Assembly (NCBI GenBank): GCA_016839275.1 | Contig: JAEOUM010000117.1 | Location: forward strand, 63,861-127,860 | DNA length: 64,000 nt | Source of the DNA: Candidatus Thorarchaeota archaeon | GTDB taxonomy: Archaea; Asgardarchaeota; Thorarchaeia; Thorarchaeales; Thorarchaeaceae | Reading direction: 5' to 3' | Shown here: positions 15,036 to 53,834 of the stretch, one piece after another | How the letters are laid out: every line of letters starts with the position of its first letter | How positions within the stretch are numbered: the stretch's first letter is position 1 | The notes under the pieces: model-generated | Told to the model about the DNA's origin: nothing | The model's database searches: none | What the model saw: the letters and a program-made list of their open reading frames with translations, nothing else | Translations under genes and position numbers: made by a program

Positions 15036-15044
15036 GGTTAAAAT
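15036..15044 (+). promoter_or_regulatory. Possible TATA/BRE element about 30 nt upstream of tRNA-Leu
   Basis: AAAATGGTTAAAAT AT-rich box at the expected distance from the tRNA 5' end. Confidence 0.25.
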
Positions 15045-15072
15045 GGGTCAGCTCTCCCCTCTTTTCGTTCAT

Positions 15073-15160: not shown

Positions 15161-15342
15161 TTTTAATACAATTTTGGCATTTATTAGATATTCATCTTAT
15201 CATCGTAACGTTCTTATAATTGTTTGATTTTGCACATATTTCGCGGCATTTCTGGGAGGTAATGACTAGCTACATCTCTCCAGAGAGGATGTTTTTGAAT
15301 TCATCCTAATGTCGTAGTATATGGGTAGGAGTAACGACAAGA

Positions 15343-15687: not shown

Positions 15688-15700
15688 AGAGTGTGGTTGT

Positions 15701-22949: not shown

Positions 22950-22956
22950 AATCAGA

Positions 22957-24204: not shown

Positions 24205-24421
24205 CCCACAATACTCCTGTCTATAACTCGAGGTATGAAACCTACACTTATGGCTCTTAAACACTTCCATAAGAAGTTGAGGTAAGTTCCATTGGACTTC
24301 AATTGGAACCTATGGAGCATATGGAAAAAAGAGTAGGTATTACCAGTTAAGTACCAATAGTACTATTCATCTAGTTATCACTGTCATCTGTGTCTACAGA
24401 CAACTCTTCCGGTGACATAAT
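24205..24421. promoter_or_regulatory. Putative replication origin (oriC) upstream of orc1/cdc6
   Basis: Inverted repeat GTTCCATTGGAC/TTCAATTGGAAC at 24287..24310 resembles ORB/mini-ORB cores (TCCANTGGAA), followed by an AT-rich stretch; next to cdc6 and near the polD small subunit, as in Pyrococcus. Confidence 0.4.
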
Positions 24422-25060: not shown

Positions 25061-25820
25061 CGTTAAGAGTGGTGATATAGTAGTACCGGGAGATCAGCTG
25101 TGTGTGATTGAAGAGCTGAGTCCTAGCTACGGCACCTATGAAAAAGATGGTATTGTATTTGCTGCTGCACCCGGCGCAGTTTCAATGGACCTTAAAGAGC
25201 GCGTTATCAAGGTCCTTCAAGCTGATGGAAAGATGAAGCTGGCACTCCCTGTCAAGGGTGATATTCTAATGGGGGAAGTTGTTAACGCATATGAACAACG
25301 AGCTGAGATTGCAGTTGTACGCAGGAATGGCGAAGACTTTCATAGTGGTCTCATAGGTGAGATTCATATTAGTAATGTTACACGCCGTTTCGTAAAAAGC
25401 ATGCATGATGTGTTAAAAGTGAGTGACATTGTACGTGCTGTTGCACTGAACACGCATGAGATTCCTACTACTGTAAGTGTTATCGGCCCCGATCTTGGAG
25501 TGGTCTTCTCAAGATGTTCAAGATGCGGTCACCCCTTGACTCTTACTACTTACAACAACATGTTTTGTTTGAGATGTGAAAACAGAGAAACCCGAGAAGT
25601 TGCCAGTGATTATGGTCAGAACTATGGACTTGAAGCAAGACCCGACCTAGCACCAAGACGAAGGTCTTATGATAATCGTGATTATGACCGAGGCGATCGT
25701 AGAGGAGGAAGACGCTTTGAAGGGGGACGTCGTGAGAGGGATGGAGATAAACGTTTTAGTGATCGAAAATCAAGTCGACCTGACAGAAGAGGAAGTGACA
25801 CACGGAGGCGTCGTGATTGA
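25053..25820 (+). CDS. csl4: Exosome RNA-binding subunit Csl4 with Arg/Asp-rich C-terminal tail
   Basis: N-terminal domain, S1 domain, and zinc ribbon CSRCGHPL...CLRCEN; the last 60 aa are an RD/RG low-complexity tail (RRRSYDNRDYDRGDRRGGRRFEGGRRERDGD...). Confidence 0.8.
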   Translation: MADVKSGDIVVPGDQLCVIEELSPSYGTYEKDGIVFAAAPGAVSMDLKERVIKVLQADGKMKLALPVKGDILMGEVVNAYEQRAEIAVVRRNGEDFHSGLIGEIHISNVTRRFVKSMHDVLKVSDIVRAVALNTHEIPTTVSVIGPDLGVVFSRCSRCGHPLTLTTYNNMFCLRCENRETREVASDYGQNYGLEARPDLAPRRRSYDNRDYDRGDRRGGRRFEGGRRERDGDKRFSDRKSSRPDRRGSDTRRRRD

Positions 25821-25852
25821 AACCAAGAACAATAGAAAATACAAAATTTGAG

Positions 25853-26107
25853 ATGATTTTTGAGATTGGCGGGGAAGGGCATTCATTTCCGAATCTACTT
25901 CGTAAGACCCTTCTTGAAGAACCTGCTGTAGAGTTTGCTGGCTACAATATTGAACATCCATTACTAGCCAGTCCAGTGGTCACTCTACGAACAAAGCGTC
26001 GTCAGGCAAATGTAGTCCTTCGCGAAGCTCTTGAAAAGATGCTTGCTCGTACTGAAGAATTTCGAAAGAAGTTCAATCAAGCAACATCCGATCATAGCAT
26101 AGATTAA
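25853..26107 (+). CDS. rpoL: DNA-directed RNA polymerase subunit L (Rpo11)
   Basis: MIFEIGGEGHSFPNLLRKTLLEEP...FAGYNIEHPL matches RpoL/Rpb11; conserved csl4-rpoL adjacency. Confidence 0.8.
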   Translation: MIFEIGGEGHSFPNLLRKTLLEEPAVEFAGYNIEHPLLASPVVTLRTKRRQANVVLREALEKMLARTEEFRKKFNQATSDHSID

Positions 26108-26137
26108 AGATCAGAATGCTGCTCTGGTGAATCCCAA

Positions 26138-26551
26138 ATGTGGGCACCTTTTGTCAAACATTCAAGCATCGAGCAGATTATGAATGATAAGGGACTAGCT
26201 AAGGTAGGCGATAATCTCGTAAACTTATGTTATTCTCTTGCCAAGACCTTAGTACTCGGCTACACGACTGGCGAAAAAGTCCGAGATAGTGTTCTTGCTA
26301 GAGCAATACGAGGTACATCTGTATACCAGCATATGAATCGGAGAAGTGACATTGGAAAAGCCGCAGATGCATACGAAGCCATTGTGGCATACTTATGGAT
26401 GACCGATAAAATAACAATCTCCGCCATGGCTGATTCTCTCGCTGGTCTACTTGAGATAGATAGCAAGACCAGCCGAGAAAAGGAAGGAATGCTTGCTGCT
26501 ATCTCCTTCCAGCGATTCCTAGAACAGAATATTGCACATCTTCCGCAGTGA
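26138..26551 (+). CDS. Mini-ribonuclease-III-like protein (RNase III catalytic domain only)
   Basis: LAKVGDNLVNLCYS resembles the RNase III signature (LAYLGDAVYEL); AADAYEAIVAYLW resembles the second catalytic motif (DxxEAxxGA); 137 aa. Confidence 0.45.
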   Translation: MWAPFVKHSSIEQIMNDKGLAKVGDNLVNLCYSLAKTLVLGYTTGEKVRDSVLARAIRGTSVYQHMNRRSDIGKAADAYEAIVAYLWMTDKITISAMADSLAGLLEIDSKTSREKEGMLAAISFQRFLEQNIAHLPQ

Positions 26552-26628
26552 CAGCACTCGTTCTATGGACAAGTCAAAATGCTTAATTGACATCTGAACA
26601 CAACGGCTCAGAAGCGGAGTGCAGTCCC

Positions 26629-26958
26629 ATGGAATTCTGTGACAAATGTGGTGCTATGATGGTACCTTTCACACAAGAAGACGGTAAACGCGTATTGAGA
26701 TGCCGGAGTTGCGAACATACAAAAGAAATACGGGGCGAACTAAGTGTATCTCAGAATATAGAGAAAGGACCGCGTGACAAGATAATTGTTGTTGAGGATG
26801 ACTCTATTCCAATGCCTGTCACGAAAGCAATCTGTCCAAAGTGTAATAACACTGATGCATACTATTGGACTGTGCAGACCCGACGTGGTGATGAAGGGGC
26901 AACAGAGTTCTATAGGTGTACTGCCTGCAAACATACTTGGCGTAACTATGGTGGCTAG
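26629..26958 (+). CDS. tfs: Transcription factor S (TFIIS-type zinc ribbon)
   Basis: N-terminal Zn ribbon CDKCGAMM...CRSCEH and C-terminal CPKCNNTDAYYWTVQTRRGDEGATEFYRCTACKHTW. Confidence 0.85.
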   Translation: MEFCDKCGAMMVPFTQEDGKRVLRCRSCEHTKEIRGELSVSQNIEKGPRDKIIVVEDDSIPMPVTKAICPKCNNTDAYYWTVQTRRGDEGATEFYRCTACKHTWRNYGG

Positions 26959-27063
26959 TTTACTAGTAATAGAACGACTGACACATTTATAGCCCCACAT
27001 AGGCGCTCCTCAGAGACTGATGATATTTCATAATACTCAGGATAATAGAAAGGGCGTTGTGAT

Positions 27064-27435
27064 TTGACCGAAGAGAAAAAATTCATTCGAAAAAAGCCAT
27101 CTCGGCTTACAACTATTCGTGAGATTTCATCAGAATCTCGTGGGCCTGTCAGAATACTTGGAATTGTAGTGGATTCCAGCCCAGGTTCTGCTCTTGTACA
27201 GGATCTTTACGATGAAGATTTTAAGAAGGCGGGAAGCATTTGGATTACTATAGAGGGAACTCTTGAACCTAAGAAAAAGTACCTCATCATCGGTGATGTG
27301 ACAGAGAAGACCGACGGTGATACTAAGATTCCTTGGCTGAATGCAACCCTTGCACATGATGTTGATTCGCTCGACATTGCACTGTACAAAGAAGTTCTGG
27401 AACTAGAGGAGAAGGTCACTAAAACAATGAGTTGA
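27064..27435 (+). CDS. Hypothetical OB-fold-like protein upstream of PCNA
   Basis: 123 aa, beta-rich (RILGIVVD...ALVQD...IEGTLEP); placed between tfs and pcna. Confidence 0.3.
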   Translation: MTEEKKFIRKKPSRLTTIREISSESRGPVRILGIVVDSSPGSALVQDLYDEDFKKAGSIWITIEGTLEPKKKYLIIGDVTEKTDGDTKIPWLNATLAHDVDSLDIALYKEVLELEEKVTKTMS

Positions 27436-27580
27436 TGAAGGAACCCCGATACACTGCAGTCCTTTACTTTCCCATGCCTGAATCTTCCGAGAAGTACATT
27501 TTAATTGCTGTTGATACTTCTAATATCTGTCCAGACCACACCTTGTTAATGGTCTTTCATCTAACTGGAGGAAAAGTACA

Positions 27581-28339
27581 ATGTTTCACGCAACTCTAGA
27601 CAGCACAAAAACCTGGAAACAGATAGTAGACGCCTTGGCAACTCTTCTTACTGAGGCTCATCTTCAAGTATCTGAATCTGGAATGACATTACGCCAACTT
27701 GACTCGTCCAAGGCAGCAATGGTTGATTTAAATCTCCCATCTGCTGTTTTTCAGGAATATGCATGTAAAGGACAACATGATATCTGCCTGGGGATTGATG
27801 AGCTTGCCAGAGTGAGTAAGCGAATGGGTGGAGATGAGCGTCTGGAGTTCAATCTTGATGAAGAAAATAAACGATTGGAAATCCGGATGATTGGCCAAGC
27901 TGAAAGACAGTTCAAACTTCAACTCCTCACACCTCCAGATAGCCCAACAAGCAAACCAAGTATGGCTTTTGAGGTCAAGGCTGAAATGTACGCAGACGCT
28001 TTCAAGCAAGCGATAAAAGATATTGGTGTGGTATCAAGCCATGTGAAGATTACCGCTGAGAAGAATACACTCACCTTCTCAGGGGAAGGCGATACTGGCG
28101 AAGCACAAGTCACGCTCTCTACCGAAGGTGAAGATCCTGTTTTGTTCCAGTTGAAAGTTGGCAGTGGTTCGTCTGCTGCTATGTACGCGCTTAACTACCT
28201 TGCTGAGATATCAAAAGCTATACCTAGTGATAGTATAATTCTTCAGCTCACTGGAAATAAACCAATGATGTTGGAATTTGCCATCGCAGAGGCAGGTAAT
28301 ATTAGCTTCATCTTGGCACCACGTGTTGAACGAAGGTAG
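27581..28339 (+). CDS. pcn: DNA polymerase sliding clamp PCNA
   Basis: MFHATLDSTKTWKQIVDALATLLTEAHLQVSESGMTLRQLDSSK matches the PCNA N-terminus; 252 aa. Confidence 0.85.
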   Translation: MFHATLDSTKTWKQIVDALATLLTEAHLQVSESGMTLRQLDSSKAAMVDLNLPSAVFQEYACKGQHDICLGIDELARVSKRMGGDERLEFNLDEENKRLEIRMIGQAERQFKLQLLTPPDSPTSKPSMAFEVKAEMYADAFKQAIKDIGVVSSHVKITAEKNTLTFSGEGDTGEAQVTLSTEGEDPVLFQLKVGSGSSAAMYALNYLAEISKAIPSDSIILQLTGNKPMMLEFAIAEAGNISFILAPRVERR

Positions 28340-28458
28340 ATTGGTCTCCCAGATTGATAATATGGAATAGTGCTCTACGAATGCCATACACCCACCCAGC
28401 ACCTCATTGGTTCTTATAGTCGAAACATAAAAGTTCACAAGAGGAGTGGTCTTCTCCA

Positions 28459-29847
28459 ATGTCAAAACGGAATCAGGGAAGGACAACAACCATAATGAAG
28501 CTCCGGCTTTTATTCCACGAATATTACTCGGAGAACCCTGAATCCTTAGATGTACCAGATAGTATCCATGCAAGAGAGTTTGCTTTGCAGACTTGGGAAC
28601 ATAACTGGCACTGCATAGAAAGGAAGGACAAAGACAGTACAGGCAAAGATGTTCGAAGTGGTTGTGGAAAATCAGGTAAGTCCTTTCAACCACTGAAAGA
28701 GTGTCCAAACTGCGGATCTGGGGAAATTAAATCCACAAGCTGGATTCGTCATATTGGTTACCAATCACGTGACGCCCTTTTAAGCGGTCTAGCCAACTCC
28801 GCACCGCAGAGTGTGTATCATTCTGCAGCATTCTATAAGGTTCCTATTGCAACACACATGCATGAAAAAGAGTGGCAGGGTGCTGAGCTGGTCTTTGATA
28901 TTGATGCCGACCATCTAAACTTGAAGTGTTCGAACGATCATGATGCATGGCGATGCAATAACTCCGACTGTCATAAAACAGGAACCGGAATCGCCCCTGA
29001 AACTTGCCCAGTATGTGGCAATATTAGTTTCAGCACAAGGAAATGGATTTGTGAAAAATGCCTTAATGAAGCAAGAAAATACACAATCAAGCTCTATGAT
29101 GATTTCTTGGTTGGTGATTTCGGGTTTGACCCAGATAAAATTCAGTTGAATTACAGTGGACACAGAGGTTACCATGTGAGGGTTCGGGATCCTCAAGTAT
29201 TCATGTTAGACTCTAATGCACGAGTAGAGATTGTCCATTACGTGATGGGCCTTGGTTTCAAAGGCGATAAGTCAATAGTCACTGAGAGTGGCGCCAAATG
29301 GATGCCGAGTCGTGACTTTCCGGGTTGGACAGGACGCATTGCTGATGCATTAGTTGAGTTTATTCGATCTATTGACTCGTACCCAGGAACAGAGAAATGG
29401 GTTTCTTCGCTAAAAGAAAGAAAGGCGGAAGCATTGGACGGTCTATTAAGAACCAGACCCATTCTTAGTAAGAATGTGAAGGGCGTGGGAGTCAAGTCTT
29501 GGCAGGAAATTGCTGAGAAAGCTGTCGAACTCTATGGAAGCGAGATTGATAGACCTGTTACGCACGACATTCATAGAGTAATTCGACTAATTGGTAGCTT
29601 AAATGGTAAGACTGGTTTTGCTGTATCTTTACTCACTCGCGACCAACTTGATGATTTTGATCCATTCAATGAATCGATTGCTTTTAATCAAGGCACTATG
29701 AAAGTCTTACTTCATAAGGGCCAGAGTATTCCTTCCTTTAAAATTGGCAGTGAAACGTACGGTCCATTCACTATGGAAGAAACTGTTGATTTGCCAATGG
29801 GTGCAGCAGTCTTTCTCCTCTGCAAGGGGGTAGCTTCAATTGAGTGA
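28459..29847 (+). CDS. priS: DNA primase small (catalytic) subunit PriS
   Basis: Catalytic ELVFDIDADHL motif; Zn ribbons CPNCGSGE and CPVCGN. Confidence 0.75.
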   Translation: MSKRNQGRTTTIMKLRLLFHEYYSENPESLDVPDSIHAREFALQTWEHNWHCIERKDKDSTGKDVRSGCGKSGKSFQPLKECPNCGSGEIKSTSWIRHIGYQSRDALLSGLANSAPQSVYHSAAFYKVPIATHMHEKEWQGAELVFDIDADHLNLKCSNDHDAWRCNNSDCHKTGTGIAPETCPVCGNISFSTRKWICEKCLNEARKYTIKLYDDFLVGDFGFDPDKIQLNYSGHRGYHVRVRDPQVFMLDSNARVEIVHYVMGLGFKGDKSIVTESGAKWMPSRDFPGWTGRIADALVEFIRSIDSYPGTEKWVSSLKERKAEALDGLLRTRPILSKNVKGVGVKSWQEIAEKAVELYGSEIDRPVTHDIHRVIRLIGSLNGKTGFAVSLLTRDQLDDFDPFNESIAFNQGTMKVLLHKGQSIPSFKIGSETYGPFTMEETVDLPMGAAVFLLCKGVASIE

Positions 29848-30484
29848 TATGAACTATAATCACATTAAGAACGCATGGGAGGATGAAACGGAGAATGAAA
29901 CACTTCAGGATATGGCAGATTTACGGTTGAGTAAGATGATCTCCTATCTCTCTCAGGTTCGTTTGTCCCTGGCATCAACAAACGCGGATGAATCACTCCA
30001 AGCAGATATACTAACACAAGAAGCACTCAACCTAGAGTTCATGCTCGAAGATTTGCTTGCTCTCCGCCGAGATAAAATCATGAAATCTGCTCTTATTGGT
30101 CGTCATCCAACAGGTAATATGACGCTCGCTGAAGAAGAGTTCTACAATCGTATTCAGCGTGCGTTTGATGCTCACTCAGAGTTCATGAAGGAGTCATTGG
30201 CAGGATCCGCCCCATCTCGTACCAAGACTAAAGTCAAGAAAGGCAAAATGACAAAGGACCAGGAAGAAAAACCTGCTGAAGAATCTGATGAAATGGACCA
30301 TATAGTTGTAAAGTTCCTCCGCCCCATTGACGAAGCATTCATGGGACTTGACGAACAGACCTATGGTCCTTTCAAGAAAGAGGATATTGCTACAATACCT
30401 ACTGCAAATGCTAGAAGATGGCTACGTGATGGTACTGTGGTCAGGGTGGTGCTTGAGGATGGTGCCCTAAAAGATGAAAAATGA
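29840..30484 (+). CDS. GINS subunit Gins51-like
   Basis: Helical A-domain plus small B-domain; overlaps the priS stop by 8 nt (priS-gins15 adjacency is known in Sulfolobales). Confidence 0.45.
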   Translation: MSDMNYNHIKNAWEDETENETLQDMADLRLSKMISYLSQVRLSLASTNADESLQADILTQEALNLEFMLEDLLALRRDKIMKSALIGRHPTGNMTLAEEEFYNRIQRAFDAHSEFMKESLAGSAPSRTKTKVKKGKMTKDQEEKPAEESDEMDHIVVKFLRPIDEAFMGLDEQTYGPFKKEDIATIPTANARRWLRDGTVVRVVLEDGALKDEK

Positions 30485-30770
30485 GCAAGTCCTCGATGAT
30501 TTGAAGTATCTCCTAGATTACCTGAATCAACAACTCGATGAAATCAAATCATCCCATGATAAATTTCTCATTACCCTTACAAGTGTTCTCAAACTTACAA
30601 ATGGCAGCAGTCCAATACTAACCAATCTCCGTGCTGACCCAGAGAATCTAAAGGCCTATTTGATTCAGATGACACTGCAGATTTCTGACTTGACTACTCA
30701 ATCTTATGAGCAGGTCTGTGAGAGAATCGAATCAATAATTGAGGCTATATCCACAGATAGAAAGTCCTAA
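30474..30770 (+). CDS. Hypothetical helical protein, overlaps the gins stop by 11 nt
   Basis: 98-aa ORF, translationally coupled to the preceding gene. Confidence 0.3.
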   Translation: MKNEQVLDDLKYLLDYLNQQLDEIKSSHDKFLITLTSVLKLTNGSSPILTNLRADPENLKAYLIQMTLQISDLTTQSYEQVCERIESIIEAISTDRKS

Positions 30771-31005: not shown

Positions 31006-31632
31006 ATGTCATTTCTACAAACTTTTAATATAGGCATTAAATGGCTGAGCACTCCCCGAGAAACGCATCAAATGGTTGTGGTGTATCCTATGACTGAAAT
31101 GGACGAACAAAGTGGTCCACCAATTACTTTGATAGACCCAATTGATATGTCGAAGCTAGATACCAAGTTTCGAGAGCAAATCAAAAGCATGCCAAATGGC
31201 GAAGAACTCTCTGCCTGTTTTGCCTGCTCTACGTGTACTGCAGCATGTCCAATTGCGAATATTTGGCAATACAAACCGCATCAACTCATCCGGATGATCA
31301 TTCTCGGAATGAAAGAGGAAGTACTTTCCTCCAATGAGATATGGCTTTGCTTAACCTGTTTTCAATGTCAGGAACGTTGCCCGCAGAAAGTCCGGGTAAC
31401 AGACATTTTCTTTGATTGTAAGAATCTTGCTGCTGAAGAAGGAAAAGTTCCTCCCAATATCATTGGCCTAGGAAAAGAACTACTTGAGAAAGGTCAACTT
31501 TACACTGTGACAGCTGACTGGGAGCGCGAAGACTTGGGTCTTGAACCCGCTGTCCCCGGCTTATCAGTCGATTCTATGAAGAATACATTGAAGAAAACCC
31601 GGACCAACAAGCTGGTGGAGGGTGGTGAGTAA
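31006..31632 (+). CDS. hdrC: Heterodisulfide reductase subunit C-like (2 x [4Fe-4S])
   Basis: CFACSTCTAACPI and CLTCFQCQERCP. Confidence 0.7.
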   Translation: MSFLQTFNIGIKWLSTPRETHQMVVVYPMTEMDEQSGPPITLIDPIDMSKLDTKFREQIKSMPNGEELSACFACSTCTAACPIANIWQYKPHQLIRMIILGMKEEVLSSNEIWLCLTCFQCQERCPQKVRVTDIFFDCKNLAAEEGKVPPNIIGLGKELLEKGQLYTVTADWEREDLGLEPAVPGLSVDSMKNTLKKTRTNKLVEGGE

Positions 31633-32500
31633 GGTGCCAGTATTCAATCTATACATGGGTTGTAGTGTACCTGCAAACTACCCCAATTACGAAGCGGCTA
31701 TGCTGAAAGTCGCAGAAACATATGACATCCAATTAGAATACATGGAAGGTGTCGGATGTTGTGGTAGCCCCAACCTTCGTGCAATTGACTATCTGGGATG
31801 GCTCACCATAAATGCAAGAACTCTAGCCATCGCAGAGAAGAACGGTCATGACATTGTCACGCCTTGCAACGGGTGTTTTGGATCACTCAAGGACGTCTAC
31901 CATTTTCTCAAGCATGATGCTAATTACAGGAAGCAAGTCAATGACATTCTGAAGAAAGACGGTTTGGAGTTCAAGGGTACAATTACTCCCCGTCATTTTG
32001 TTGAAGCTCTGTACACCGATATCGGTATTGAAGAGATAGGGAAAAAGATCACTAAACCATTAGATGGAGTTGGAATTGCCATTCACTATGGTTGTCATCT
32101 TCTGCGTCCTATTGATGTGACTGAATTCAAGCCAGAATTTCTGAACGATCTTATTCAGGCAACTGGTGCTTCAGTTGTAGAGTACCCACTGTGGAAACAA
32201 TGTTGTGGCGCAACAGTTCTACCTGTTGACGAAAACCTAGCAATCCGGCTTGCTCGTGATAAGCTAAAATCAATGAAAGAATCAGGAGCGGAATTCATTG
32301 CTGTGGTCTGTCCAGCCTGTGGAAATCAGCTTGATTTACAACAGCTGGGGCTGAAGGAATCATATGGTGAGGAGTTCAACTTACCAGTACTTCTATACCC
32401 CCAGATTCTTGGCCTAGCTTTAGGGATGACTGAAGAAGAAGTAGGACTCAACATGAACAGGGTCCCTGCTGATTCTATCTTGAATCATTTGACAGGGTGA
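31622..32500 (+). CDS. hdrB: Heterodisulfide reductase subunit B-like (two CCG domains)
   Basis: CCG motifs GCCGSP...C...C and QCCGAT...CPACGNQ. Confidence 0.75.
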   Translation: MVSKVPVFNLYMGCSVPANYPNYEAAMLKVAETYDIQLEYMEGVGCCGSPNLRAIDYLGWLTINARTLAIAEKNGHDIVTPCNGCFGSLKDVYHFLKHDANYRKQVNDILKKDGLEFKGTITPRHFVEALYTDIGIEEIGKKITKPLDGVGIAIHYGCHLLRPIDVTEFKPEFLNDLIQATGASVVEYPLWKQCCGATVLPVDENLAIRLARDKLKSMKESGAEFIAVVCPACGNQLDLQQLGLKESYGEEFNLPVLLYPQILGLALGMTEEEVGLNMNRVPADSILNHLTG

Positions 32501-33762
32501 GGCGGATGAGTGCGTCTAATCCGGTCCTCATAATTGGAGCTGGCGTTGCAGGTATGACTGCTGCTGTAGAGCTTGCAGATTCAGGGATTAAGGCAGTGCT
32601 TGTTGAAAGACAAGAAACCGTAGGCGGCAATGCACTTGACCTCTACAAGGCATTCCCAACCGATGATTGTTTTTACTGCTTTGAAGGAAATCGCTGGCGT
32701 CCTGGAATTCGTAAGTGCTTCTATAGGAGTGCACTCATTGATCAGCCCAATATATCACTGAAAATGAATAGCGAAGTGAATACCATTTCTGGTACTCCTG
32801 GCCAATTCACAGTAACACTAAGTGTAGGTCCACAGTATATTGATCCAAAGAAATGTACGATGTGCGGTCTTTGTCTAGAAAAGTCAAAAGCATTCCATCT
32901 GATATCTCCCCAGTGCCAACCTCAAGCAGTCGTATATAATCCTTCAATAAATGATGATGGTGCTAAACAGGCTGAGGAGGAGTGCCCCACCAAGGCAATC
33001 AGCTTGAATGCACAACCCACCGAGGAAATAATCAAAGTATCGGATATCATTATTGCAACTGGATATCATGAAATGAAACCAGTCAACATGGATGAGTATA
33101 GCTACGGAAAACATCCTAACATTATAACACAATTAGAACTTGCAAAGATAATTGACCCAAATGGTGAGTCCAACGGTGTACCTCTAAAACCATCTGATGG
33201 AAAACCTGTGAAAAGAGTCATGATGGTTCAATGTGTGGGAAGTAGGGATGAAAACTATTATCCCTATTGTTCAAAGATATGTTGTGTCTTCGCTCTCAAA
33301 CATGCCAATATTCTCATGCAAGAACGAGATGGAGTTCAAGTCAGTGTTGTGTACATGGACATCCGTACTTATGATAGGTATGAACGGTACTATCATACAG
33401 CTCGAGAGTCTGGTGTTGAATTTATCCGAGGAAGGGTATCCCTTATACAACCTCGTGAAGACGGCTCCTTGGACATAGTTGTCTATGATTCGCTCTTGAA
33501 CAAATATCTGAAATTTTCAGTGGATCTTTTTGTTCTATCATCAGCTCTAGAACCACCAGAGGGTACAAACAAACTCATCGAAAGCCTCGGGTTAAAATCA
33601 GCAAGTGGATTTGTTGGAATCGCAGATCCAAAAACAGAAAACGAAGTCATAGTGGGCGACCACATCTATGCTTGTGGTACAGCATTGGGCCCTGCAGAAG
33701 TTCCTGAGAGCGTGACCCAAGCCCGAGCAGCAGTATCTAAGATACTCCAGAGTAGGAAGTGA
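32497..33762 (+). CDS. hdrA: HdrA-like FAD-dependent oxidoreductase (short form)
   Basis: FAD fold IIGAGVAGMTAAVELA; HdrA signature VQCVGSRDENYYPYCSKICCVFALKHA; ferredoxin CTMCGLCLEKS. Confidence 0.7.
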   Translation: MRRMSASNPVLIIGAGVAGMTAAVELADSGIKAVLVERQETVGGNALDLYKAFPTDDCFYCFEGNRWRPGIRKCFYRSALIDQPNISLKMNSEVNTISGTPGQFTVTLSVGPQYIDPKKCTMCGLCLEKSKAFHLISPQCQPQAVVYNPSINDDGAKQAEEECPTKAISLNAQPTEEIIKVSDIIIATGYHEMKPVNMDEYSYGKHPNIITQLELAKIIDPNGESNGVPLKPSDGKPVKRVMMVQCVGSRDENYYPYCSKICCVFALKHANILMQERDGVQVSVVYMDIRTYDRYERYYHTARESGVEFIRGRVSLIQPREDGSLDIVVYDSLLNKYLKFSVDLFVLSSALEPPEGTNKLIESLGLKSASGFVGIADPKTENEVIVGDHIYACGTALGPAEVPESVTQARAAVSKILQSRK

Positions 33763-33771
33763 AACTGATAG

Positions 33772-35937
33772 ATGGATGATAATAAATCAGCAGCACTCAT
33801 CTGTACTTGCGGCAAACAACTTCAGTTGAAATATGACTTCCTAGAAACCCAAGTCAGCAAGATGAACCTAGTAGCTTCGGCGACGGTTCATGATTTTGTC
33901 TGTCAGGAAGAAGGTCTCGCGAAAATCGCAGAGACTCTCAAGGCAAATGACGGTCATCTTGTAATTGCAGCCTGCTCAAGTCAAAAAATCCAACCCCGAA
34001 TCGATCAATATCTCAAGTCACACGACATTGATAGCACCCAGATCCAATATGTGAACATCAGAGAACACTCCGCTTGGGTACACAAGGACATTGATGAAGC
34101 AACTAAAAAGTCTGCAGACATGATTCGCGGTACATTAGCAAGGTCTGCGAAAGCGGTAAAACGATCAGTGGAACAGAAAGAGGTCTCTCCTCATGTCACA
34201 GTCATTGGTGGAGGGATTGCTGGTATTGAATCTGCACTTAGCCTCTCGAATCTGGGATACAAAGTCGTTCTTCTAGAAATCAAAGACGAACTTGGTGGGC
34301 ATGTACAAAGCCTTCCTGTTGTTGCTCCGACAGGAAAATCGGGCAAAGAGATACTAAGCGGTCGATTGGAAGCTATCAAGAATGATAAAGACATCACAAT
34401 AATGACCAAGGTTCGCGTCAAATTTGTTTCTGGAGAACAAGGTAACTTCTCCATACACTATTTGTCAGATGATGACGAAGAAAAAACATTGAACACTTCA
34501 GCTATAGTCCTAGCTACTGGATTCAAAGAGTTCAAACCTACATCCATGGAAGAATATCGCTATGGAAAGAATCCTGATGTAATCACACAATTCGAACTCT
34601 CATGTATGTTGTCCGAGGGTAAACTAGCCCGTCCCTCTGATGGTGCACCAATCAAAGAAGTAGTGATGGTTCAGTGTGTTGGTAGTAGGTCTGAGGACTA
34701 TAAGAAGGACTGTAGTAAATTATGCTGTACCTTCGCAATTGACAATTCATTAGAGATACTAGAAAGAATACCAGATGCTACTGTTCGAATAGTCTACATG
34801 GACATTAGAGTTCCCTTTGAGAATGAGATGATATACAAAGAGTCCCGCGAGAAAGGAGTAGATTATATTCGCGGTCGTGTCAGCATGACCTGGGAGCATG
34901 AAGGTAAAACATACGTACGCATCTATGACTCCTTACTCGATAAGTATCTAGATATCCCAGTGGATTTACTGGTACTCTCTTCCGCTATTCTTCCTTCAGA
35001 TGGGACTTTAGAACTCTCTGAAACGCTAGGCTATGCGGTTGAAGATGATGGACATGTAAAGGAACTTTATGGGAAACTTCGACGTAATGAAACCCGTCGG
35101 CGGGGTGTCGTTGCAGTTGGAGGGATTACTCGTCCACAGTTTGTTTTTGAAGCTATTACAGACGCTCAAGCTGGAGCTCTCGTGATTCATAATGAGCTTC
35201 AGGGTGGAACTATTCACACAGTTGCGCGTGGAGCTGTTCTAAACGTCGATGACTGTGTTGGATGCAGTCTCTGCGCTCAGCAGTGTCCACGTGGGGTTCC
35301 TCTCATGATTGAACAGACAGAAGCGGAAGAATCTGATGAAGAACAGAAGATTCTTTTCAAAGCAGCAATTGACACATTGAACTGTCATGCATGTGGAGTA
35401 TGTCAAAGCCTATGCCCCTCTGGTGCTACACAGCTTAATTTTCTCTCTAATGATCAGCTATGGTCCGAGATAGATGCGGTACTTGAGGGTGCAGGTCCAG
35501 AGAATCCGATTACACTCTGTTTCTATTGTGAAGAGTGTTCAGTATCAACAATAGATATTGTTGGAACTAGGAGGATGGAATACCCTGCTAGCACACGTCT
35601 TATTCCAGTTCCCTGTGCAGGCCGTGTAAGTATCATAGACATTCTCAAAGCCTTTGAACATGGTGCAAGCACAGTGATGATTGCGGCCTGTGAGAAGGAC
35701 CGTTGTCATATTGGAGGGACCGGCAATGAAATCGCTCAGGTGCAGGTAGACGTTGCTCGAGATATTTTGAACGCGATTGGGTGGAAAGGAGAACGTGTAG
35801 ATATGTTCAGAATGTTTAGTGCGGAGCCTGAACGCTTTACTAAGGCTGTAAACGAAATGGTGAAGCGTGCCAAGGATTTAGGTCCGACTCCTGTCCATGA
35901 TGGAACTGCTGGTAAATGGAGGGAGATGAGCGAGTGA
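33772..35937 (+). CDS. hdrA: HdrA-like FAD oxidoreductase fused to a C-terminal MvhD-like domain
   Basis: FAD fold VTVIGGGIAGIESAL; VQCVGSRSEDYKKDCSKLCCTFA; 2 x [4Fe-4S] CVGCSLCAQQCP/CHACGVCQSLCP; MvhD pattern PCAGRVSIIDILKAFEHGASTVMIAACEKDRCH. Confidence 0.7.
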   Translation: MDDNKSAALICTCGKQLQLKYDFLETQVSKMNLVASATVHDFVCQEEGLAKIAETLKANDGHLVIAACSSQKIQPRIDQYLKSHDIDSTQIQYVNIREHSAWVHKDIDEATKKSADMIRGTLARSAKAVKRSVEQKEVSPHVTVIGGGIAGIESALSLSNLGYKVVLLEIKDELGGHVQSLPVVAPTGKSGKEILSGRLEAIKNDKDITIMTKVRVKFVSGEQGNFSIHYLSDDDEEKTLNTSAIVLATGFKEFKPTSMEEYRYGKNPDVITQFELSCMLSEGKLARPSDGAPIKEVVMVQCVGSRSEDYKKDCSKLCCTFAIDNSLEILERIPDATVRIVYMDIRVPFENEMIYKESREKGVDYIRGRVSMTWEHEGKTYVRIYDSLLDKYLDIPVDLLVLSSAILPSDGTLELSETLGYAVEDDGHVKELYGKLRRNETRRRGVVAVGGITRPQFVFEAITDAQAGALVIHNELQGGTIHTVARGAVLNVDDCVGCSLCAQQCPRGVPLMIEQTEAEESDEEQKILFKAAIDTLNCHACGVCQSLCPSGATQLNFLSNDQLWSEIDAVLEGAGPENPITLCFYCEECSVSTIDIVGTRRMEYPASTRLIPVPCAGRVSIIDILKAFEHGASTVMIAACEKDRCHIGGTGNEIAQVQVDVARDILNAIGWKGERVDMFRMFSAEPERFTKAVNEMVKRAKDLGPTPVHDGTAGKWREMSE

Positions 35938-38198
35938 GTCATGCAACCCCTGAGAAGGTAATTGCACCAAAAAGACAACGAATGTTGGATATGGTATTAG
36001 CACTAAGCGGGCTTAAAGAAGAGTCAACGATTCCACTGAGTAAAGTAAAGGATGAACTTGAAAATCTAAAGAAAGAACTTGCTCCCCTTACTGATGCAAT
36101 CATTGCATTTCCTGACTCCTATTTCGAGAAATTTCTAGAATCTGTAAAGAAGAGTAATATTGCTGCTGAGATAAACGACAGAGGCGTTCTCAAGGAATCA
36201 ATCTCTAATCTTGAACAGGCTTTGTCAACAGCTGACTCTGTATCATTGAAAGCACTGAATAAAATACTTACAGACGCTCTCAATAGAATGACCGAGGTAG
36301 AGGAACACCACGATGTAAGTGCAGATATTGATTTGGCTTCGACTATCTCGACTCTATCTGATTTTATTTCTGAAATCGAGCTGATTACAGACGAATTTGA
36401 GAAGGCTGCTGAAACTGAAGCAGATTCTGCAAGGTCTGAATTAGTAACGCTAGCTGAATCCCTTAAAGAAACCCAAGAAAAGATCGAAAAAGATCCAGAC
36501 GCTGCGCTAGACGAGCTTCAAAAACTAGGATCTCAGACGCGCTATGGCCCCGGATTGAGGTCAATAGCACAGGTGAAACGAGGTAAGAGAGAAGGTCGAA
36601 TCGATGATGCTCAGTTCAACAGACTTGTCAAAGAGAATCTACTTACTGAAATCAATCGTGGAGTAATCTTGTTTATTCTTTCGAAAATGGGATCCAAGAC
36701 CGTTGTACAAATTGGAGAACTCATGCAGACGCCGCCTCAAACAATCCAGAACGCTCTAGTGACTATGATACAGAGAGGGGAAGTTGAGATGGTTGGTCTT
36801 GATGGAGATGCTCCTGTATTCTCAAGGGTGCTCACAGAAACACCCAACGCAACATTGCTCATGAAGAGGATTGTCCAACAGGTTCGGGGGATGGTAAAAT
36901 CCCTAGAAGGTGAAACTACTGAAACCATGAAAGAGGCTCTCGGAAGGCTGCAAACATTACTTGAACGTCTAAAGATACTTGGAGCCTACAATGAGGCTCT
37001 ACTATCTGACAGTATTAACAAGCTCCGAGAAGCAGTCGATAGTGTCACAGAATCCGTATTAACTGCCCAGACGACCGACGATGCTGATAATCTCAAGCTA
37101 CTCATATCTGCAGGACTTGAAGCCTTTGCCCGGTTTCGTCTTAAAATCACTCTAGAAAAAGGGCCCTCGCTTGTTTCAGGTACCAATGTCTATGGCGAAA
37201 AACTTGACCCTGAAGTATACAAGAACATGATGGATACCTATCTTGATAATGAGCTTGAGAGAGGTACGATTCTGATTCTTATTCGAGAATTAGGGGCACT
37301 AACAGTACATGATCTTGCAGAGAGAACAAACATTCCTTCCGATAGAATACTCCGACATTTGCTCAGAATGAAGCGTGATGAGCTTCTTATAATTGCTGGG
37401 GAGAATCACGGGTATATTCTCTATGATGTGCCAAGGACGCTCTCAGAGGCTGAAATCTCAATACAGACTACGAGTGATTTGGCTCTGCATCTATCCGCGG
37501 CTAGGGAAGAGCTTCAGAGGATATTGAGCGACCTGAAAGCATCGGATATTGGGAAATTAGCTAACTCGCTTGAGGTCTTTTCGAAAGCACGTGATAAGCT
37601 CACATCTGTTCGTGTGCAGGGTACGGTAATTGATGAAACCACCCTGAACGATGTGGAGGATAAGATACGGTCCGCGGTCTTACTCACTTATCGAACGCGC
37701 GCTAAGATTCCGAGCACCAGACCAAAGGTGACAATTGAGGATCTATTGGATATTGATGTTCCATCTGTTCTCGATGAGTATAGAAGTCAAATGGGCTATG
37801 CACCACTTCTAGGATTTGGAACAATAGAATGGGAACAATCAAAATGCCTCGGTTGCAAGTCATGTGAGATTACCTGTCCGGAACATGCAATAGAACTGAA
37901 ACCACGAATAGAGATACCTAAGTTTTTCGAGATCTCTGACGATGCTCTCTCTCAGTTACCCTCCAACCGGTCTCTCTTTTACAGAACTGTTCAAAATCTT
38001 GCTAAGATAAAACCATCAAACGAGCTCATCCTTGAAAAGGAAGCTCCAGGATTTGGTACTGTAGAAGTGGATCTTTGGCTATGTGTGGCTTGTCGTACGT
38101 GTGTACGAAGATGTCCGGGTCCTGAAGGCGGCGCTCTGGAGTTAGAGCTGAAATGGAGTCTTCCAGAAGTTGTGAAGCATATTACCTCGACTTCATGA
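35916..38198 (+). CDS. Novel 760-aa protein with coiled coil, two winged-helix segments and a C-terminal di-cluster ferredoxin domain
   Basis: Overlaps the hdrA stop by 22 nt. Winged-helix-like segments are ...GVILFILSKMGSKTVVQIGELMQTPPQTIQNALVTMIQRGEV... and ...GTILILIRELGALTVHDLAERTNIPSDRILRHLLRMKRDEL.... C-terminus carries CLGCKSCEITCPEHA and CVACRTCVRRCPG. Confidence 0.5.
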   Translation: MEGDERVSHATPEKVIAPKRQRMLDMVLALSGLKEESTIPLSKVKDELENLKKELAPLTDAIIAFPDSYFEKFLESVKKSNIAAEINDRGVLKESISNLEQALSTADSVSLKALNKILTDALNRMTEVEEHHDVSADIDLASTISTLSDFISEIELITDEFEKAAETEADSARSELVTLAESLKETQEKIEKDPDAALDELQKLGSQTRYGPGLRSIAQVKRGKREGRIDDAQFNRLVKENLLTEINRGVILFILSKMGSKTVVQIGELMQTPPQTIQNALVTMIQRGEVEMVGLDGDAPVFSRVLTETPNATLLMKRIVQQVRGMVKSLEGETTETMKEALGRLQTLLERLKILGAYNEALLSDSINKLREAVDSVTESVLTAQTTDDADNLKLLISAGLEAFARFRLKITLEKGPSLVSGTNVYGEKLDPEVYKNMMDTYLDNELERGTILILIRELGALTVHDLAERTNIPSDRILRHLLRMKRDELLIIAGENHGYILYDVPRTLSEAEISIQTTSDLALHLSAAREELQRILSDLKASDIGKLANSLEVFSKARDKLTSVRVQGTVIDETTLNDVEDKIRSAVLLTYRTRAKIPSTRPKVTIEDLLDIDVPSVLDEYRSQMGYAPLLGFGTIEWEQSKCLGCKSCEITCPEHAIELKPRIEIPKFFEISDDALSQLPSNRSLFYRTVQNLAKIKPSNELILEKEAPGFGTVEVDLWLCVACRTCVRRCPGPEGGALELELKWSLPEVVKHITSTS

Positions 38199-38290
38199 TC
38201 TCACAAATCAATATCTAAGATGCCCTTTAGTAACTGACTTATACCACTTGGCGAAAGGTCAAAGGACACATAATCCTTTGAGGGAGAATT

Positions 38291-39490
38291 ATGATTGACT
38301 TCAATCTATCCGAGGAACAGCAGGAGCTTAGGAACAAGGCGCGAGTATTTGCACAGGAGTATATGATTCCCTATGCTCACTACTACGATAAGACTGGAGA
38401 ATTTCCACGTCCAATAATCAAAAAGTGTTGGGAAGAAGGACTCATGAACCTCTCAATTCCGAAGGAGTACGGAGGGCCGGGTCTAGGTTCCATTGAACAA
38501 TGTATCACTGTAGAAGAAATGGCCGCTGGTTGTGCAGGAATGACGACGAGCATCTATGTGAACTCTCTCGGCGCTGAACCAATTCTGGTGGCTGGAACCC
38601 CTGAACAAAAGGAGAAGTATCTTCGACCACTTACAGAAGATTTGAAGTTCATCAGTTTCGCCTGTTCCGAGCCGGGAATGGGATCCGATGTTGCTGGTAT
38701 CCAGACACGGGTCAAGCGGGAGGGTGACTATTATGTCCTTAATGGGTCCAAGTTCTGGATAACCAATGCTCCACACGCAGATACATTCACTGTTTTTGCA
38801 AGTCTTGATCCAAGCAAGCGACACAAAGCGCTCTGTGCATTCATTGTTGATGCTGACACTCCTGGGGTGAGGACAGGTCGGCCAGTAGAGAAGATGGGAC
38901 ATAAAGCCTCCACAACATCAGCAGTGATGTTTAGAGATGCCAAGGTCCCTATCGAGAACATGCTGGGCACTGAAGGAGAAGGTTTCAAGATAGCAATGAA
39001 GACATTTGCAATGACACGTCCATCGATTGCTGCATTTGCTACGGGTCTCGCCAGAGCTGCTATGGAATTTGCTCGTGATTATACCACTAAAAGAGCGGTT
39101 TTTGGCGAAAAACTCAACAATTTCGAAGTCATTCAGTTCAAACTAGCAGACATGTACATGAAAATAGAAGCTGCCAGATTGATGTATCTAAAGGCTGCAT
39201 GGACTGCTGACTTTGTCGGTGACTCCACAATTCCAGCAAGTGCTGCCAAAGCCTTCGCTACTGATGTGGCCATGGAGGTTGCTAGTGAGGCTGTTCAAAT
39301 CCACGGCGGTTATGGGTACATCGATCAATATCCTGTTGAGAAATTGTTCAGAGATGCTAAGCTATACCAGATCTATGAAGGAACAAGCGAGGTTCAGCGG
39401 CTGATACTCGCGCGATATGTATTCTCAGGATATGAACCTGCAATGAGTAAGATACCAAGATGGTACAACAACGAGCCACCTGATTTCTAA
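38291..39490 (+). CDS. Acyl-CoA dehydrogenase (short/medium-chain type)
   Basis: ACAD family signatures, including the C-terminal [18 protein letters not shown] motif. Confidence 0.85.
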
Positions 39491-39559: not shown

Positions 39560-40603
39560 GTGATTCTGATGCGTTTCGTTGATGGACTAAAGATACTTCT
39601 CACAAATTCATGGTATAACTTTGCATTCATTCTTTCATTGATTGCAACAACTATCATCTCAGTATGGATAGCAGTTGATCCAAACTCGCTCATTTCCATT
39701 ACTGATCCAATACTAGGTTTCGCAATCTCAATCACTGTGTCTTTCCAGTATTTTGTGATTGCTTTGGTCATTTTTTCCTTGATTCCAGTTGGACGCAAGC
39801 TTTTCTTTAGTGATGGAAAAAAGAGCTTAGGTTATCAATTAGCTCTCTGCATCATATTCATTCTAATCTTCATGATTTTAGGGCCCATTACAGCTCTGGC
39901 GGGTCCATTTGTCGGAGTTCCTCTCACTTTTGGCGATGCGTTGATTACGTCTTACTTTGCTGTACTGCTTGGTTGGAACATCGGAAAATCTATATCCGCT
40001 AAACTTGGCGAAAAGAAGACGCTCCATTGGGTTTTCTTTGTACTGTTCTGGATAATCGATTTCATGATTTTTGGGGCTATTGTTATTTTTCTCAATCTCT
40101 TCTCATTACCTTTCGAACAACAGATTGTGATGCTTGTATTTCCACTAGGAATTGCGATATTACCAATCCTTACAGTCCTATTCCGTAATAATGAGAAAGG
40201 TCCGAACCAAACTACACTCTTGACATTCATCATCTTCATCTATGGTATATACTATACATACCGTTTGGTGTCCATAACTGAGCCACAATGGGCAATATCT
40301 GATGTAGTCCTACAACTAGCATTGCTTATCTATGGTCTCTCTACAACCATCTCAAAAATTCACGACTCGGTTGGCGAAACACCGACAATTGCTGTGACAG
40401 TGGTCCTCCTTATCATCCTAAGTCGAGTTGGTTCACAGGTAAGTCGTCTTCTTGCAGCGTCCATTGGTTTAGGTCCAATTGTGCAAGTGGGCATCACAAG
40501 CTTCACAATTTTCCTCTTAGCTATACTAGGACTTATCGTACCTGTATATTGGATGTGGCAACGCAAGAAGAATCCAGAACAGGTATTAAGTCTCGACGTA
40601 TAA
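39560..40603 (+). CDS. Polytopic integral membrane protein (9 or more TM)
   Basis: Continuous hydrophobic helices; function unknown. Confidence 0.5.
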   Translation: MILMRFVDGLKILLTNSWYNFAFILSLIATTIISVWIAVDPNSLISITDPILGFAISITVSFQYFVIALVIFSLIPVGRKLFFSDGKKSLGYQLALCIIFILIFMILGPITALAGPFVGVPLTFGDALITSYFAVLLGWNIGKSISAKLGEKKTLHWVFFVLFWIIDFMIFGAIVIFLNLFSLPFEQQIVMLVFPLGIAILPILTVLFRNNEKGPNQTTLLTFIIFIYGIYYTYRLVSITEPQWAISDVVLQLALLIYGLSTTISKIHDSVGETPTIAVTVVLLIILSRVGSQVSRLLAASIGLGPIVQVGITSFTIFLLAILGLIVPVYWMWQRKKNPEQVLSLDV

Positions 40604-40675
40604 TCTATACGTGGCGTAGTTCTGAACCTTCAAATTGTGATGGTCATTGCATCACAAGTCTGTGGTGATTAGAAG

Positions 40676-41491
40676 ATGCCAGAGCTACCAGATATCTATA
40701 TCCTTGCAAAGAGCATGAATGAAGCTCTGAAGGACAAAGTGATTGTAGGCGCCCATGTGAATCAACCAAAGTGTCTGAACATATCTGCTAAGAAATTCAA
40801 GGACTCTATCAAAGGGCGTCGTATTGAAGATGTCAATCAACGTGGCAAATGGGTCATTGTCAGTCTAGATAGTGATTATACTCTTGTTCTTAATCTTGGA
40901 ATGGGCGGTGAAGTTCGCTTACACAATCAAAATGAAAAACCAAATCCCGAACGAGAACGAATAGTACTGAATTTAAATACAGGCGAACAGGTGTGGATAC
41001 ACCACTGGTGGTTTGGCCACGTACATCTCTTCAACTCAAAGGATATTACAAAACACAAGCAAATCTCAAAACTTGGTCCAGAACCCCTCAGTGATAGTTT
41101 TACAGTAGAGAAATTCACTGAACTGCTGAAAGGCAAGAGAGGTCGTATCAAGAGCTACCTTCTAGATCAGAGCTTCATCGCTGGTATTGGTAACGTCTAC
41201 ATTCAAGATACACTCTGGTATGCAAGAATTCATCCAAATCGTAGAGCAAATACACTCACTGACAAGGAAATCAAGAGTCTCTATGATGCAATTCAACGTG
41301 TCCTAAAACAGGGAATTCGGTATGGTGGTGGCCCTGGGGAACAGGACATCTGGGGTAATCAAGGCACATATTCGAAGCATCTCCAAGTCGGTTATCGTAC
41401 AGGAAAACCATGCCCAAGATGTAAAACAACTATCGAAGAATTACGCGTTGGTTCAACAACCAGTTATATCTGTTCGAAATGTCAAGTATAG
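40676..41491 (+). CDS. fpg: Formamidopyrimidine/endonuclease VIII-like DNA glycosylase (Fpg/Nei)
   Basis: N-terminal MPELPDI (catalytic Pro2/Glu3); H2TH LLDQSFIAGIGNVYIQDTLWYARIHP; C-terminal zinc finger CPRCKT...CSKCQ. Confidence 0.8.
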   Translation: MPELPDIYILAKSMNEALKDKVIVGAHVNQPKCLNISAKKFKDSIKGRRIEDVNQRGKWVIVSLDSDYTLVLNLGMGGEVRLHNQNEKPNPERERIVLNLNTGEQVWIHHWWFGHVHLFNSKDITKHKQISKLGPEPLSDSFTVEKFTELLKGKRGRIKSYLLDQSFIAGIGNVYIQDTLWYARIHPNRRANTLTDKEIKSLYDAIQRVLKQGIRYGGGPGEQDIWGNQGTYSKHLQVGYRTGKPCPRCKTTIEELRVGSTTSYICSKCQV

Positions 41492-43157: not shown

Positions 43158-43568
43158 ATGCCCCCGAAAGATATGAACATCATCGTCTATGGATGTATGC
43201 AATGCATGTACGCCGCATCCGATCTCGCAGGCACAATGAAGTTGCAATATGATGCAACAAGTAGGATTATCAGAATGCCGTGCACTGCGAGGCTGGACAT
43301 CAATTTTCTTCTTAAGGCACTGCAAGAAGGGGCGGACGGAGTGCTGGTTGTGGGATGTCATCCAGGAGACTGCGCCTTCAAGACCGGGAATCTGGGAGCA
43401 GAGAGACGCGTTCGCTTTACGAAGAAACTGATTGAGCAGTTAGGTCTCGATGAGCGCCGCATCAAGATGGTATTCGTGAGTGCGGCTGAAGGTGACAAGT
43501 TCGCAGCTGAGGTCAATAAGTTCGCTGAGGAGATAAGAGCAATCGGACCGAATCCGATTCGATTGTAA
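43158..43568 (+). CDS. Stand-alone MvhD/FlpD-like iron-sulfur protein
   Basis: CMQC...RMPCTARLD...GADGVLVVGCHPGDC pattern of methyl-viologen-reducing hydrogenase delta subunits. Confidence 0.6.
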   Translation: MPPKDMNIIVYGCMQCMYAASDLAGTMKLQYDATSRIIRMPCTARLDINFLLKALQEGADGVLVVGCHPGDCAFKTGNLGAERRVRFTKKLIEQLGLDERRIKMVFVSAAEGDKFAAEVNKFAEEIRAIGPNPIRL

Positions 43569-53803: not shown

Positions 53804-53834
53804 AAGGAGATAGGTCAATCACAGGTGAGCTATA

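Follow-up and report, generated by a model that had tools for sequence, protein, structure and literature searches.

Hdr-type electron-transfer modules have been described in several forms. NAD(P)H-linked systems comprise FlxABCD-HdrABC and the HdrL-type fusions of HdrA with GltD/NfnB-like modules, and other relatives are the HdrABC-MvhAGD and HdrA2B2C2 complexes of methanogens and the Qmo complexes. In Asgard archaea, the closest known relatives of eukaryotes, models of syntrophic energy metabolism lean heavily on many Hdr/MvhD modules that are still unassigned. Here we describe one such module from a 64-kb stretch of a Thorarchaeota contig, referred to below as the window, in which six genes on the + strand encode an HdrC-like protein, an HdrB-like protein, a short and a long HdrA paralog, a 754-aa protein that we call X, and an acyl-CoA dehydrogenase (ACAD). 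Comparison of the sequences leads us to read the first five, on balance, as probably specifying a soluble five-subunit Hdr/Qmo-like Fe-S flavoprotein complex specific to Asgard archaea, with ACAD as an independent gene behind it. The Hdr/Qmo-like core is of a known kind, and what would be new is X together with a variant of X that is fused to an NfnB-type module. This singles out one conserved module with its own, previously undescribed subunit, in which a natural fusion would name NADP(H) as a partner, and it would turn the vague annotation "HdrABC present" into a testable complex.

In architecture, the module resembles QmoABC of sulfate reducers and its variant qmoAB-hdrCB. As in those systems, a short HdrA stands beside a long HdrA with an MvhD-like domain, an HdrC-like protein with two [4Fe-4S] clusters is present, and donor and acceptor partners lie outside the cluster (PMC3333476). 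The module of the window differs from QmoABC in that it lacks a heme b membrane domain and apr/sat neighbours, and in that it has a complete HdrB with two CCG motifs as well as X, for which Qmo has no counterpart. In Gram-positive sulfate reducers an hdrCB replacement is said to occur, reportedly described by Pereira et al. in 2011 and by Junier et al. in 2010.

With HdrABC-MvhAGD (PDB 5ODC family) and Methanosarcina HdrA2B2C2 the module shares the CCG motifs of HdrB, the dicluster HdrC and an FAD/thioredoxin reductase (TrxR) core of HdrA with the motif CxGxRD..CSxxCC, and MvhD is fused to HdrA as in HdrA2 of Methanosarcina. Unlike methanogen Hdr, it divides the HdrA domains between two proteins, with an inserted-ferredoxin remnant and the FPTxDC motif on the short paralog and the N-terminal domain, the C-terminal ferredoxin domain and MvhD on the long one. 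Its subunits also fall below the equivalog cutoffs, X is an extra subunit, and no hydrogenase or formate dehydrogenase (Fdh) was found among the window open reading frames (ORFs) of at least 150 aa. To our knowledge, Thorarchaeota are not known to use CoM-S-S-CoB.

In methanogen supercomplexes, HdrA is bound by ferredoxin-domain subunits, the polyferredoxins MvhB and FmdF, which carry its electrons (PMC13580544). X would resemble them as a dedicated Fe-S protein on HdrA that relays electrons, and differs in having a single dicluster domain on a cofactor-free helical/winged-helix scaffold of ~620 residues that has no PDB counterpart. The likeness to the NAD(P)H-linked systems lies in close relatives of the window organism, where a fused X has an NfnB-type NADPH/FAD/2x[4Fe-4S] module; X of the window lacks this module, and in the variants it is X and not HdrA that is the fusion partner. 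ACAD, finally, is homologous to the dehydrogenase subunits of Bcd-EtfAB and CarCDE but has no adjacent etfAB, and is closer to non-bifurcating medium-chain acyl-CoA dehydrogenases (MCADs; 1e-122).

The Hdr-like core and its paired HdrA paralogs

A conserved B recognition element (BRE) and TATA box precede hdrC, hdrB, short hdrA, long hdrA/mvhD and X, which are packed closely together as a single unit. This promoter-like element, AAACTTTTAATATAGG, lies at 31018-31036 (+), with the motif CTGCAAACTTTTAATATRGG ~60-65 nucleotides (nt) 5' of the hdrC ATG and the TATA box at ~31022-31033, and it is conserved upstream of hdrC in 21 Thorarchaeota loci, including the rearranged locus L050. Because orthologs are 180-186 aa long and the TATA box is conserved at this position, the most likely start of hdrC is 31090, within an ORF that extends at most to 31006. 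Downstream of it, hdrC and hdrB overlap by 11 nt, hdrB and short hdrA overlap by 4 nt, the two hdrA genes are 9 nt apart, and long hdrA and X overlap by 4 nt (GTGA).

A preliminary description of this DNA had laid out the same six + strand ORFs, and each of them proved to have significant family matches (for X, weak, sub-threshold winged helix-turn-helix [wHTH] matches and a C-terminal Fer4 dicluster). Profile searches and coordinates agree on the consecutive, overlapping or near-abutting order of HdrC, two-CCG HdrB, short HdrA and long HdrA/MvhD, and the 92-nt gap before ACAD was correctly placed. The gene for X is present as described, but its size of 760 aa and its 22-nt overlap with long hdrA, which follow from an ORF that opens at 35916, need correction. 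X most likely starts at the GTG at 35934, since its orthologs are 753-754 aa long and this start leaves the 4-nt overlap; a homolog search also returned a 100% identical 754-aa counterpart of the 760-aa ORF.

The HdrC-like protein (180 aa; 31090-31632, +) is soluble and has two CxxCxxCxxxCP motifs, with matches to Fer4_8 of Pfam (4.6e-12) and to the HdrC model TIGR03290 (4e-29). The HdrB-like protein (292 aa; 31622-32500, +) would be the catalytic subunit that reduces a disulfide. It matches the Pfam CCG domain over two stretches (7.6e-31) and TIGR03288 (3.8e-82), and it has exactly 10 cysteines, which make up two complete C-x31-35-CC-x34-C-x2-C motifs at residues 14-85 and 158-233. It thus has the two CCG motifs that characterize the methanogen-type HdrABC with its two non-cubane [4Fe-4S] clusters.

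The sets of HdrA domains found in the two paralogs complement each other, and HdrA2 is the top NCBIfam model for both. The short paralog (421 aa; 32497-33762, +), which is QmoA-like, matches positions 135-556 of the HdrA2 model (3.5e-89) and aligns with residues ~145-567 of solved HdrA structures (1e-75). It holds the FAD/TrxR core, with the motifs GAGVAG, FPTDDCFYC and CVGSRD..CSKICC, and its inserted ferredoxin domain is a one-cluster remnant in which only CxxCxxC and one CP are left; the N-terminal domain and the C-terminal ferredoxin domain are missing. The long paralog (721 aa; 33772-35937, +) is QmoB/HdrA2-like and fused to MvhD/FlpD, with matches to the HdrA2 model (9.8e-138) and FlpD (4.9e-33) and, in the PDB, to HdrA (2.8e-82) and MvhD chains (2e-27). 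It has the N-terminal four-cysteine domain, the FAD/TrxR core with CVGSRS..CSKLCC, a C-terminal ferredoxin domain with two CxxCxxCxxxCP motifs (2x[4Fe-4S]) and MvhD, and it has neither the inserted ferredoxin domain nor the FPTxDC motif. The four domains of a single HdrA (N-terminal, TrxR/FAD, inserted ferredoxin and C-terminal ferredoxin) are accordingly spread over two proteins here.

The tandem paralogs had been singled out in the preliminary description as unusual. This does not hold, because QmoA and QmoB are likewise two HdrA homologs of which the larger has an MvhD-like domain (PMC3333476), and because multiple hdrA copies and MvhD fusions have already been documented in Thor- and Lokiarchaeota (PMC11237513).

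Protein X as a probable subunit of the Hdr module

X (754 aa; 35934-38198, +) is an Asgard-specific Fe-S protein. An N-terminal helical domain is followed by two wHTH/helical repeats (~220-400 and 421-590), which are homologous to each other (hhalign probability 98.8%, E 1e-16), and by a 2x[4Fe-4S] ferredoxin domain at residues 626-754. X has exactly eight cysteines, all within two CxxCxxCxxxCP motifs ~60 residues apart, and all eight are invariant across the family. The AlphaFold2 model (mean predicted local distance difference test score 77, predicted template modelling score 0.39) shows the N-terminal helical domain, two units of helix, winged helix and helical hairpin, and the ferredoxin domain. 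When the family profile was compared with PDB sequences, it matched ferredoxin domains and AspA-type wHTH domains, with no further informative fold match. The ferredoxin domain resembles FwdF, NuoI and PsaC, that is, the two-cluster, electron-transfer type.

We found 243 homologs of X. The best 120 are at least 70% identical and all come from Thorarchaeota-type metagenome-assembled genomes (MAGs), and an exhaustive HMMER search added full-length relatives at 19-26% identity in MAGs of Hel- and Lokiarchaeota, which are annotated merely as "4Fe-4S binding", "ATP-binding" or hypothetical. Neither X nor its NfnB-fused variant is described in the literature that we searched, and neither has an entry in the family libraries; together these sequences define an unannotated Asgard family, with 20-25% identity from one lineage to another.

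Wherever a locus reaches far enough upstream of X, the gene for X adjoins long hdrA; this holds for 58 loci of Thorarchaeota and eight of Hel- and Lokiarchaeota (L007-L009 and L067-L071). In the 58 Thorarchaeota loci, in which the identity of X ranges from 48% to 82%, the order is hdrC, hdrB, short hdrA, long hdrA, X, ACAD. The Hel- and Lokiarchaeota clusters are arranged as two giant HdrA-like genes, FlpD, a small ORF, short hdrA, long hdrA/mvhD, X, hdrC and hdrB, so that X lies between long hdrA and hdrC, with spacers of at most ~18 nt or overlaps; their downstream flanks vary from locus to locus. Because X stays with the HdrA pair and HdrCB despite this permuted order and deep divergence, the comparative evidence for X as a putative part of the Hdr module is strong. 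One apparent hdr-less X locus, in the "complete" Thorarchaeota chromosome L026, was dismissed, as 100-N scaffold gaps lie directly upstream of X.

The Hel- and Lokiarchaeota clusters have several features of their own. The X module is always preceded, at positions ~1-5900, by FlpD and by two giant HdrA-like proteins, of ~1150 and ~1020 aa, in which the HdrA core is duplicated; this suggests that these lineages carry a much larger Hdr supercluster. At L008:5524-5904 and L009:5701-6072 the FlpD/MvhD gene is called as two ORFs of ~50 aa, and it is intact in L070 and L071. An in-frame UGA selenocysteine codon has been described for Asgard MvhD/FrhD (PMC11227280), and the split calls are consistent with such a codon. 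The ORFs of 91-101 aa upstream of short hdrA are related among themselves; a 98-aa ORF that lies upstream of hdrC in the window (30474-30770) was considered as their counterpart and rejected for want of similarity. In the Lokiarchaeote locus L070, hdrB is followed directly and on the same strand by genes for an S-adenosylmethionine-type methyltransferase and a URO-D family protein (13629-15785), and the latter family includes MtaA-like methyltransferases.

Six Thorarchaeota loci (L055-L060) encode a longer X of 968-972 aa (e.g., L059:10001-12904; proteins P0123 and P0198-P0202). In these proteins a Fer4_20 + Pyr_redox_2 module takes the place of repeat 1 (residues ~205-416), and the remainder of X and of the operon is retained. 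The genomes that carry them rank with the nearest relatives of the window organism; ACAD is 86-92% identical in five and 75% identical in L058. In all, the fused variant was seen on 10 or more contigs from the independent sources NCBI, JGI and ENA. In the PDB the module is matched best by NfnB-type proteins, namely 9n5u_A (NfnB-type, deposited as NfnA; 1e-122), StnC (8oh5_C; 1e-110) and T. maritima NfnB (4ylf_B; 5e-98). Outside the family, the nearest relatives of the module come from Chloroflexi, Deltaproteobacteria and Thorarchaeota, where they form fusions with HdrA, FlpD or CCG modules. X of the window has no such NfnB/GltD-type module by Pfam. Because the basic winged-helix repeat has given way to an NADPH-oxidoreductase module, X is better explained as an electron-transfer subunit and docking scaffold than as a DNA-binding regulator. 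From the fused variant we also infer that NADP(H) would be one physiological partner of this Hdr core.

In the complex that we propose, the short and long HdrA would pair as a heterodimer around FAD, as has been proposed for QmoA/QmoB, and this FAD may be a bifurcating centre. HdrC would hand electrons to HdrB, which would reduce a disulfide. X would be a stoichiometric subunit whose helical/winged-helix repeats act as a docking scaffold and whose ferredoxin domain connects the clusters of HdrA/MvhD with a donor or acceptor outside the complex; this relay is proposed by analogy, because MvhB and FmdF bind HdrA and carry electrons (PMC13580544). In the fused variants NADP(H) would be the built-in partner, and for the unfused form of the window a partner (ferredoxin, an NfnB/SudA-like protein, a hydrogenase or FlpD) would be encoded elsewhere. 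ACAD would most likely be a conventional Etf-dependent enzyme of beta-oxidation, whose transcription would start mainly at its own promoter and might be regulated jointly with that of the operon.

The acyl-CoA dehydrogenase and alternative readings

The ACAD gene (399 aa) occupies 38291-39490 (+), and a Shine-Dalgarno-like site, GAGGGAG, lies ahead of its ATG. The protein has all three ACAD Pfam domains, N-terminal, middle and C-terminal (1.2e-33, 3.6e-24 and 1e-50). Solved MCADs were matched at 1e-122 to 1e-116, with the T. thermophilus enzyme (1ukw) at 1e-122 and pig/human MCAD at 1e-119, and the catalytic Glu region YEGTSE is conserved in a full-length alignment to 1ukw; the dehydrogenase subunits of bifurcating enzymes score 6e-85 (CarC) and 1e-84 (Bcd). 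These matches make ACAD a canonical MCAD-type enzyme. Between ACAD and the cupin gene that follows it in most Thorarchaeota, the window has an insertion (39560-41491) with genes for a 347-aa multi-pass membrane protein that matches no family and for an Fpg/Nei DNA glycosylase; the same insertion was seen in L059.

The spacer between X and ACAD, 92 nt in the window, measures 67-167 nt across Thorarchaeota loci, as against at most 25 nt within the operon. Its sole well-conserved stretch in 22 Thorarchaeota loci is a TATA-like element, AACTGACTTATACC (38231-38245, +), 52 nt before the ACAD ATG. The S15, primase, FlpD and cupin genes of the window have TTATA elements like AACTGACTTATACC between -39 and -56, and because of this resemblance ACAD probably has its own promoter.

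Several observations weigh against a five-subunit complex followed by an independent ACAD. All of the Hdr subunits score under the NCBIfam equivalog cutoffs (HdrC 101 of 160 bits, HdrB 276 of 345, and the HdrA paralogs 300 and 460 of 1100), so that the scores do not assign a substrate; for this reason we call the module Hdr-like and leave its disulfide unspecified. Complex formation, the HdrA heterodimer and the direction of electron flow we infer entirely from gene order and domain content. The N-terminal 620 residues of X have no cofactor motif, and its two winged-helix domains, the first consistently basic, would also suit nucleic-acid binding. As for ACAD, the Thorarchaeota block from hdrC to ACAD is invariant while both flanks vary, no oligo-T tract or terminator follows the stop codon of X, and the enzyme has a C-terminal tail that extends past the end of solved MCADs.

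These last three points are what one would expect if the six genes of Thorarchaeota formed one unit. ACAD would then dock on X/Hdr and work without Etf, with flavin-based bifurcation or confurcation coupling the acyl-CoA/enoyl-CoA couple to a disulfide and to ferredoxin, or to NADPH where X is fused. We regard this as unlikely. In the 58 Thorarchaeota loci long enough to show it, where X is as little as 48% identical, X is indeed followed by ACAD without exception. The genes after ACAD differ (the cupin gene directly, an insertion of the membrane protein and Fpg like that of the window, or neither of the two), and in L050 (1-5134), the most divergent Thorarchaeota locus, rpL3, rpL4, rpL2, FtsZ and Lsm replace PCNA, primase and GINS upstream and the block is intact. 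The tail of ACAD (GYxPAMxxxPxW....PPDF, ~20 residues at ~381-399; window 39431-39490) is present in all Thorarchaeota orthologs and could be a docking peptide. However, ACAD is absent from eight of the eight Hel- and Lokiarchaeota clusters that hold Hdr and X, the spacer is long and contains the conserved TATA-like element, and the enzyme is highly similar to Etf-dependent MCADs. Synteny within Thorarchaeota is itself weak evidence here, because the functionally unrelated PCNA, primase and GINS genes are almost as persistently linked.

The lack of an Etf partner in the window, which had been part of the case for a coupled complex, does not settle the matter. No ETF match was found among window ORFs of at least 150 aa, and none in the Thorarchaeota loci inspected, so the preliminary description was right that Etf, like hydrogenase and Fdh, is missing from the window. 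EtfAB clusters have been reported in a Thorarchaeota MAG (PMC8072921), and Etf with an Fe-S oxidoreductase in other Asgard genomes (PMC6478937), and the missing etf therefore gives no evidence for an Etf-independent route. Of the acyl-CoA-coupled bifurcating complex that had been suggested, the linkage of hdr, X and ACAD stood across the 58 Thorarchaeota loci, where the block is invariant, and failed in the eight Hel- and Lokiarchaeota clusters; the TATA-like element and the canonical MCAD character of the enzyme also speak against it. A physical or functional coupling of Hdr and ACAD in any form thus seems doubtful to us. So does its fullest version for Thorarchaeia, one machine in which an MCAD-type ACAD docks, perhaps via its tail, to give an Etf-independent bifurcating or confurcating acyl-CoA link to a disulfide and ferredoxin/NADPH, with X founding a class of adaptor subunits that connect various redox partners to Hdr cores. 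Should the ACAD link in Thorarchaeota prove real, it would be the first case of beta-oxidation being coupled to an Hdr core independently of Etf.

It is quite unlikely that X is a redox-sensing transcription factor, with winged helices and an Fe-S sensor, that controls the hdr operon and/or the ACAD promoter and is no subunit of an enzyme. The two winged-helix domains, the AspA match in the PDB and the conserved sequence that continues upstream of the TATA-like element of ACAD would fit such a role, and automatic JGI annotations name relatives of X as MarR/IscR-type regulators. Repeat 1 is also basic in all lineages (isoelectric point 9.1-10.4), yet the protein as a whole is acidic (5.1). The matches to MarR, TrmB and ArsR-type domains are weak: MarR_2 reaches 28.4 bits (cutoff 27) with no single stretch passing, and MarR, TrmB, HTH_24 and HTH_5 are at or under their curated cutoffs. 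Moreover, the basic repeat 1 is exactly the part that is swapped for the NfnB-type module in six relatives that keep the rest, and the Fe-S part is of the electron-transfer type. The start of X overlaps long hdrA, and in Hel- and Lokiarchaeota X is placed between long hdrA and hdrC, which suggests stoichiometric co-translation. The earlier characterization of this protein as an "adaptor or regulator" therefore survives in its first half, with linkage to Hdr in all adequate loci, and is weakened in its second by the NfnB swap.

A true Qmo-type (QmoAB-HdrCB) complex for dissimilatory sulfur metabolism, passing electrons for example to APS reductase or a DsrC-like protein, is highly improbable: the short HdrA, the long HdrA/MvhD and the HdrC-like Fe-S protein do mirror QmoA, QmoB and the soluble part of QmoC, and HdrC matches the QmoC model weakly (2.9e-16), but this match amounts to 60 bits against a 300-bit cutoff and comes with no membrane or heme domain, there are no apr, sat or dsr genes within the 64-kb window, an X-like subunit is absent from Qmo, and the likeness to QmoA/B is, as stated above, architectural.

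Flanking genes of the window

Downstream of ACAD, a stand-alone MvhD/FlpD gene (136 aa; 43158-43568, +; FlpD 2.2e-45) is a possible additional electron-transfer partner of uncertain association. Many Thorarchaeota loci have it 1-8 kb 3' of ACAD, with identities of 81-96%.

The genes that surround the module belong to archaeal information processing (Cdc6, PolD small subunit, Rpb11, TFS, PCNA, primase and GINS). Several of them make up a replication-gene island at 21339-30484, which holds the PolD small subunit, Cdc6 (- strand), PCNA, primase and GINS. Near 24 kb the sign of the GC skew flips, which suggests a replication origin at ~24270-24422, in the intergenic stretch beside cdc6.

Further downstream, at 52959-55557, a protein with a dinitrogenase FeMo-cofactor-binding (NifX/NifB-like) domain is followed ~400 nt later by two adjacent MinD/ParA-type ATPases, both of which bear 4Fe-4S ferredoxin inserts.

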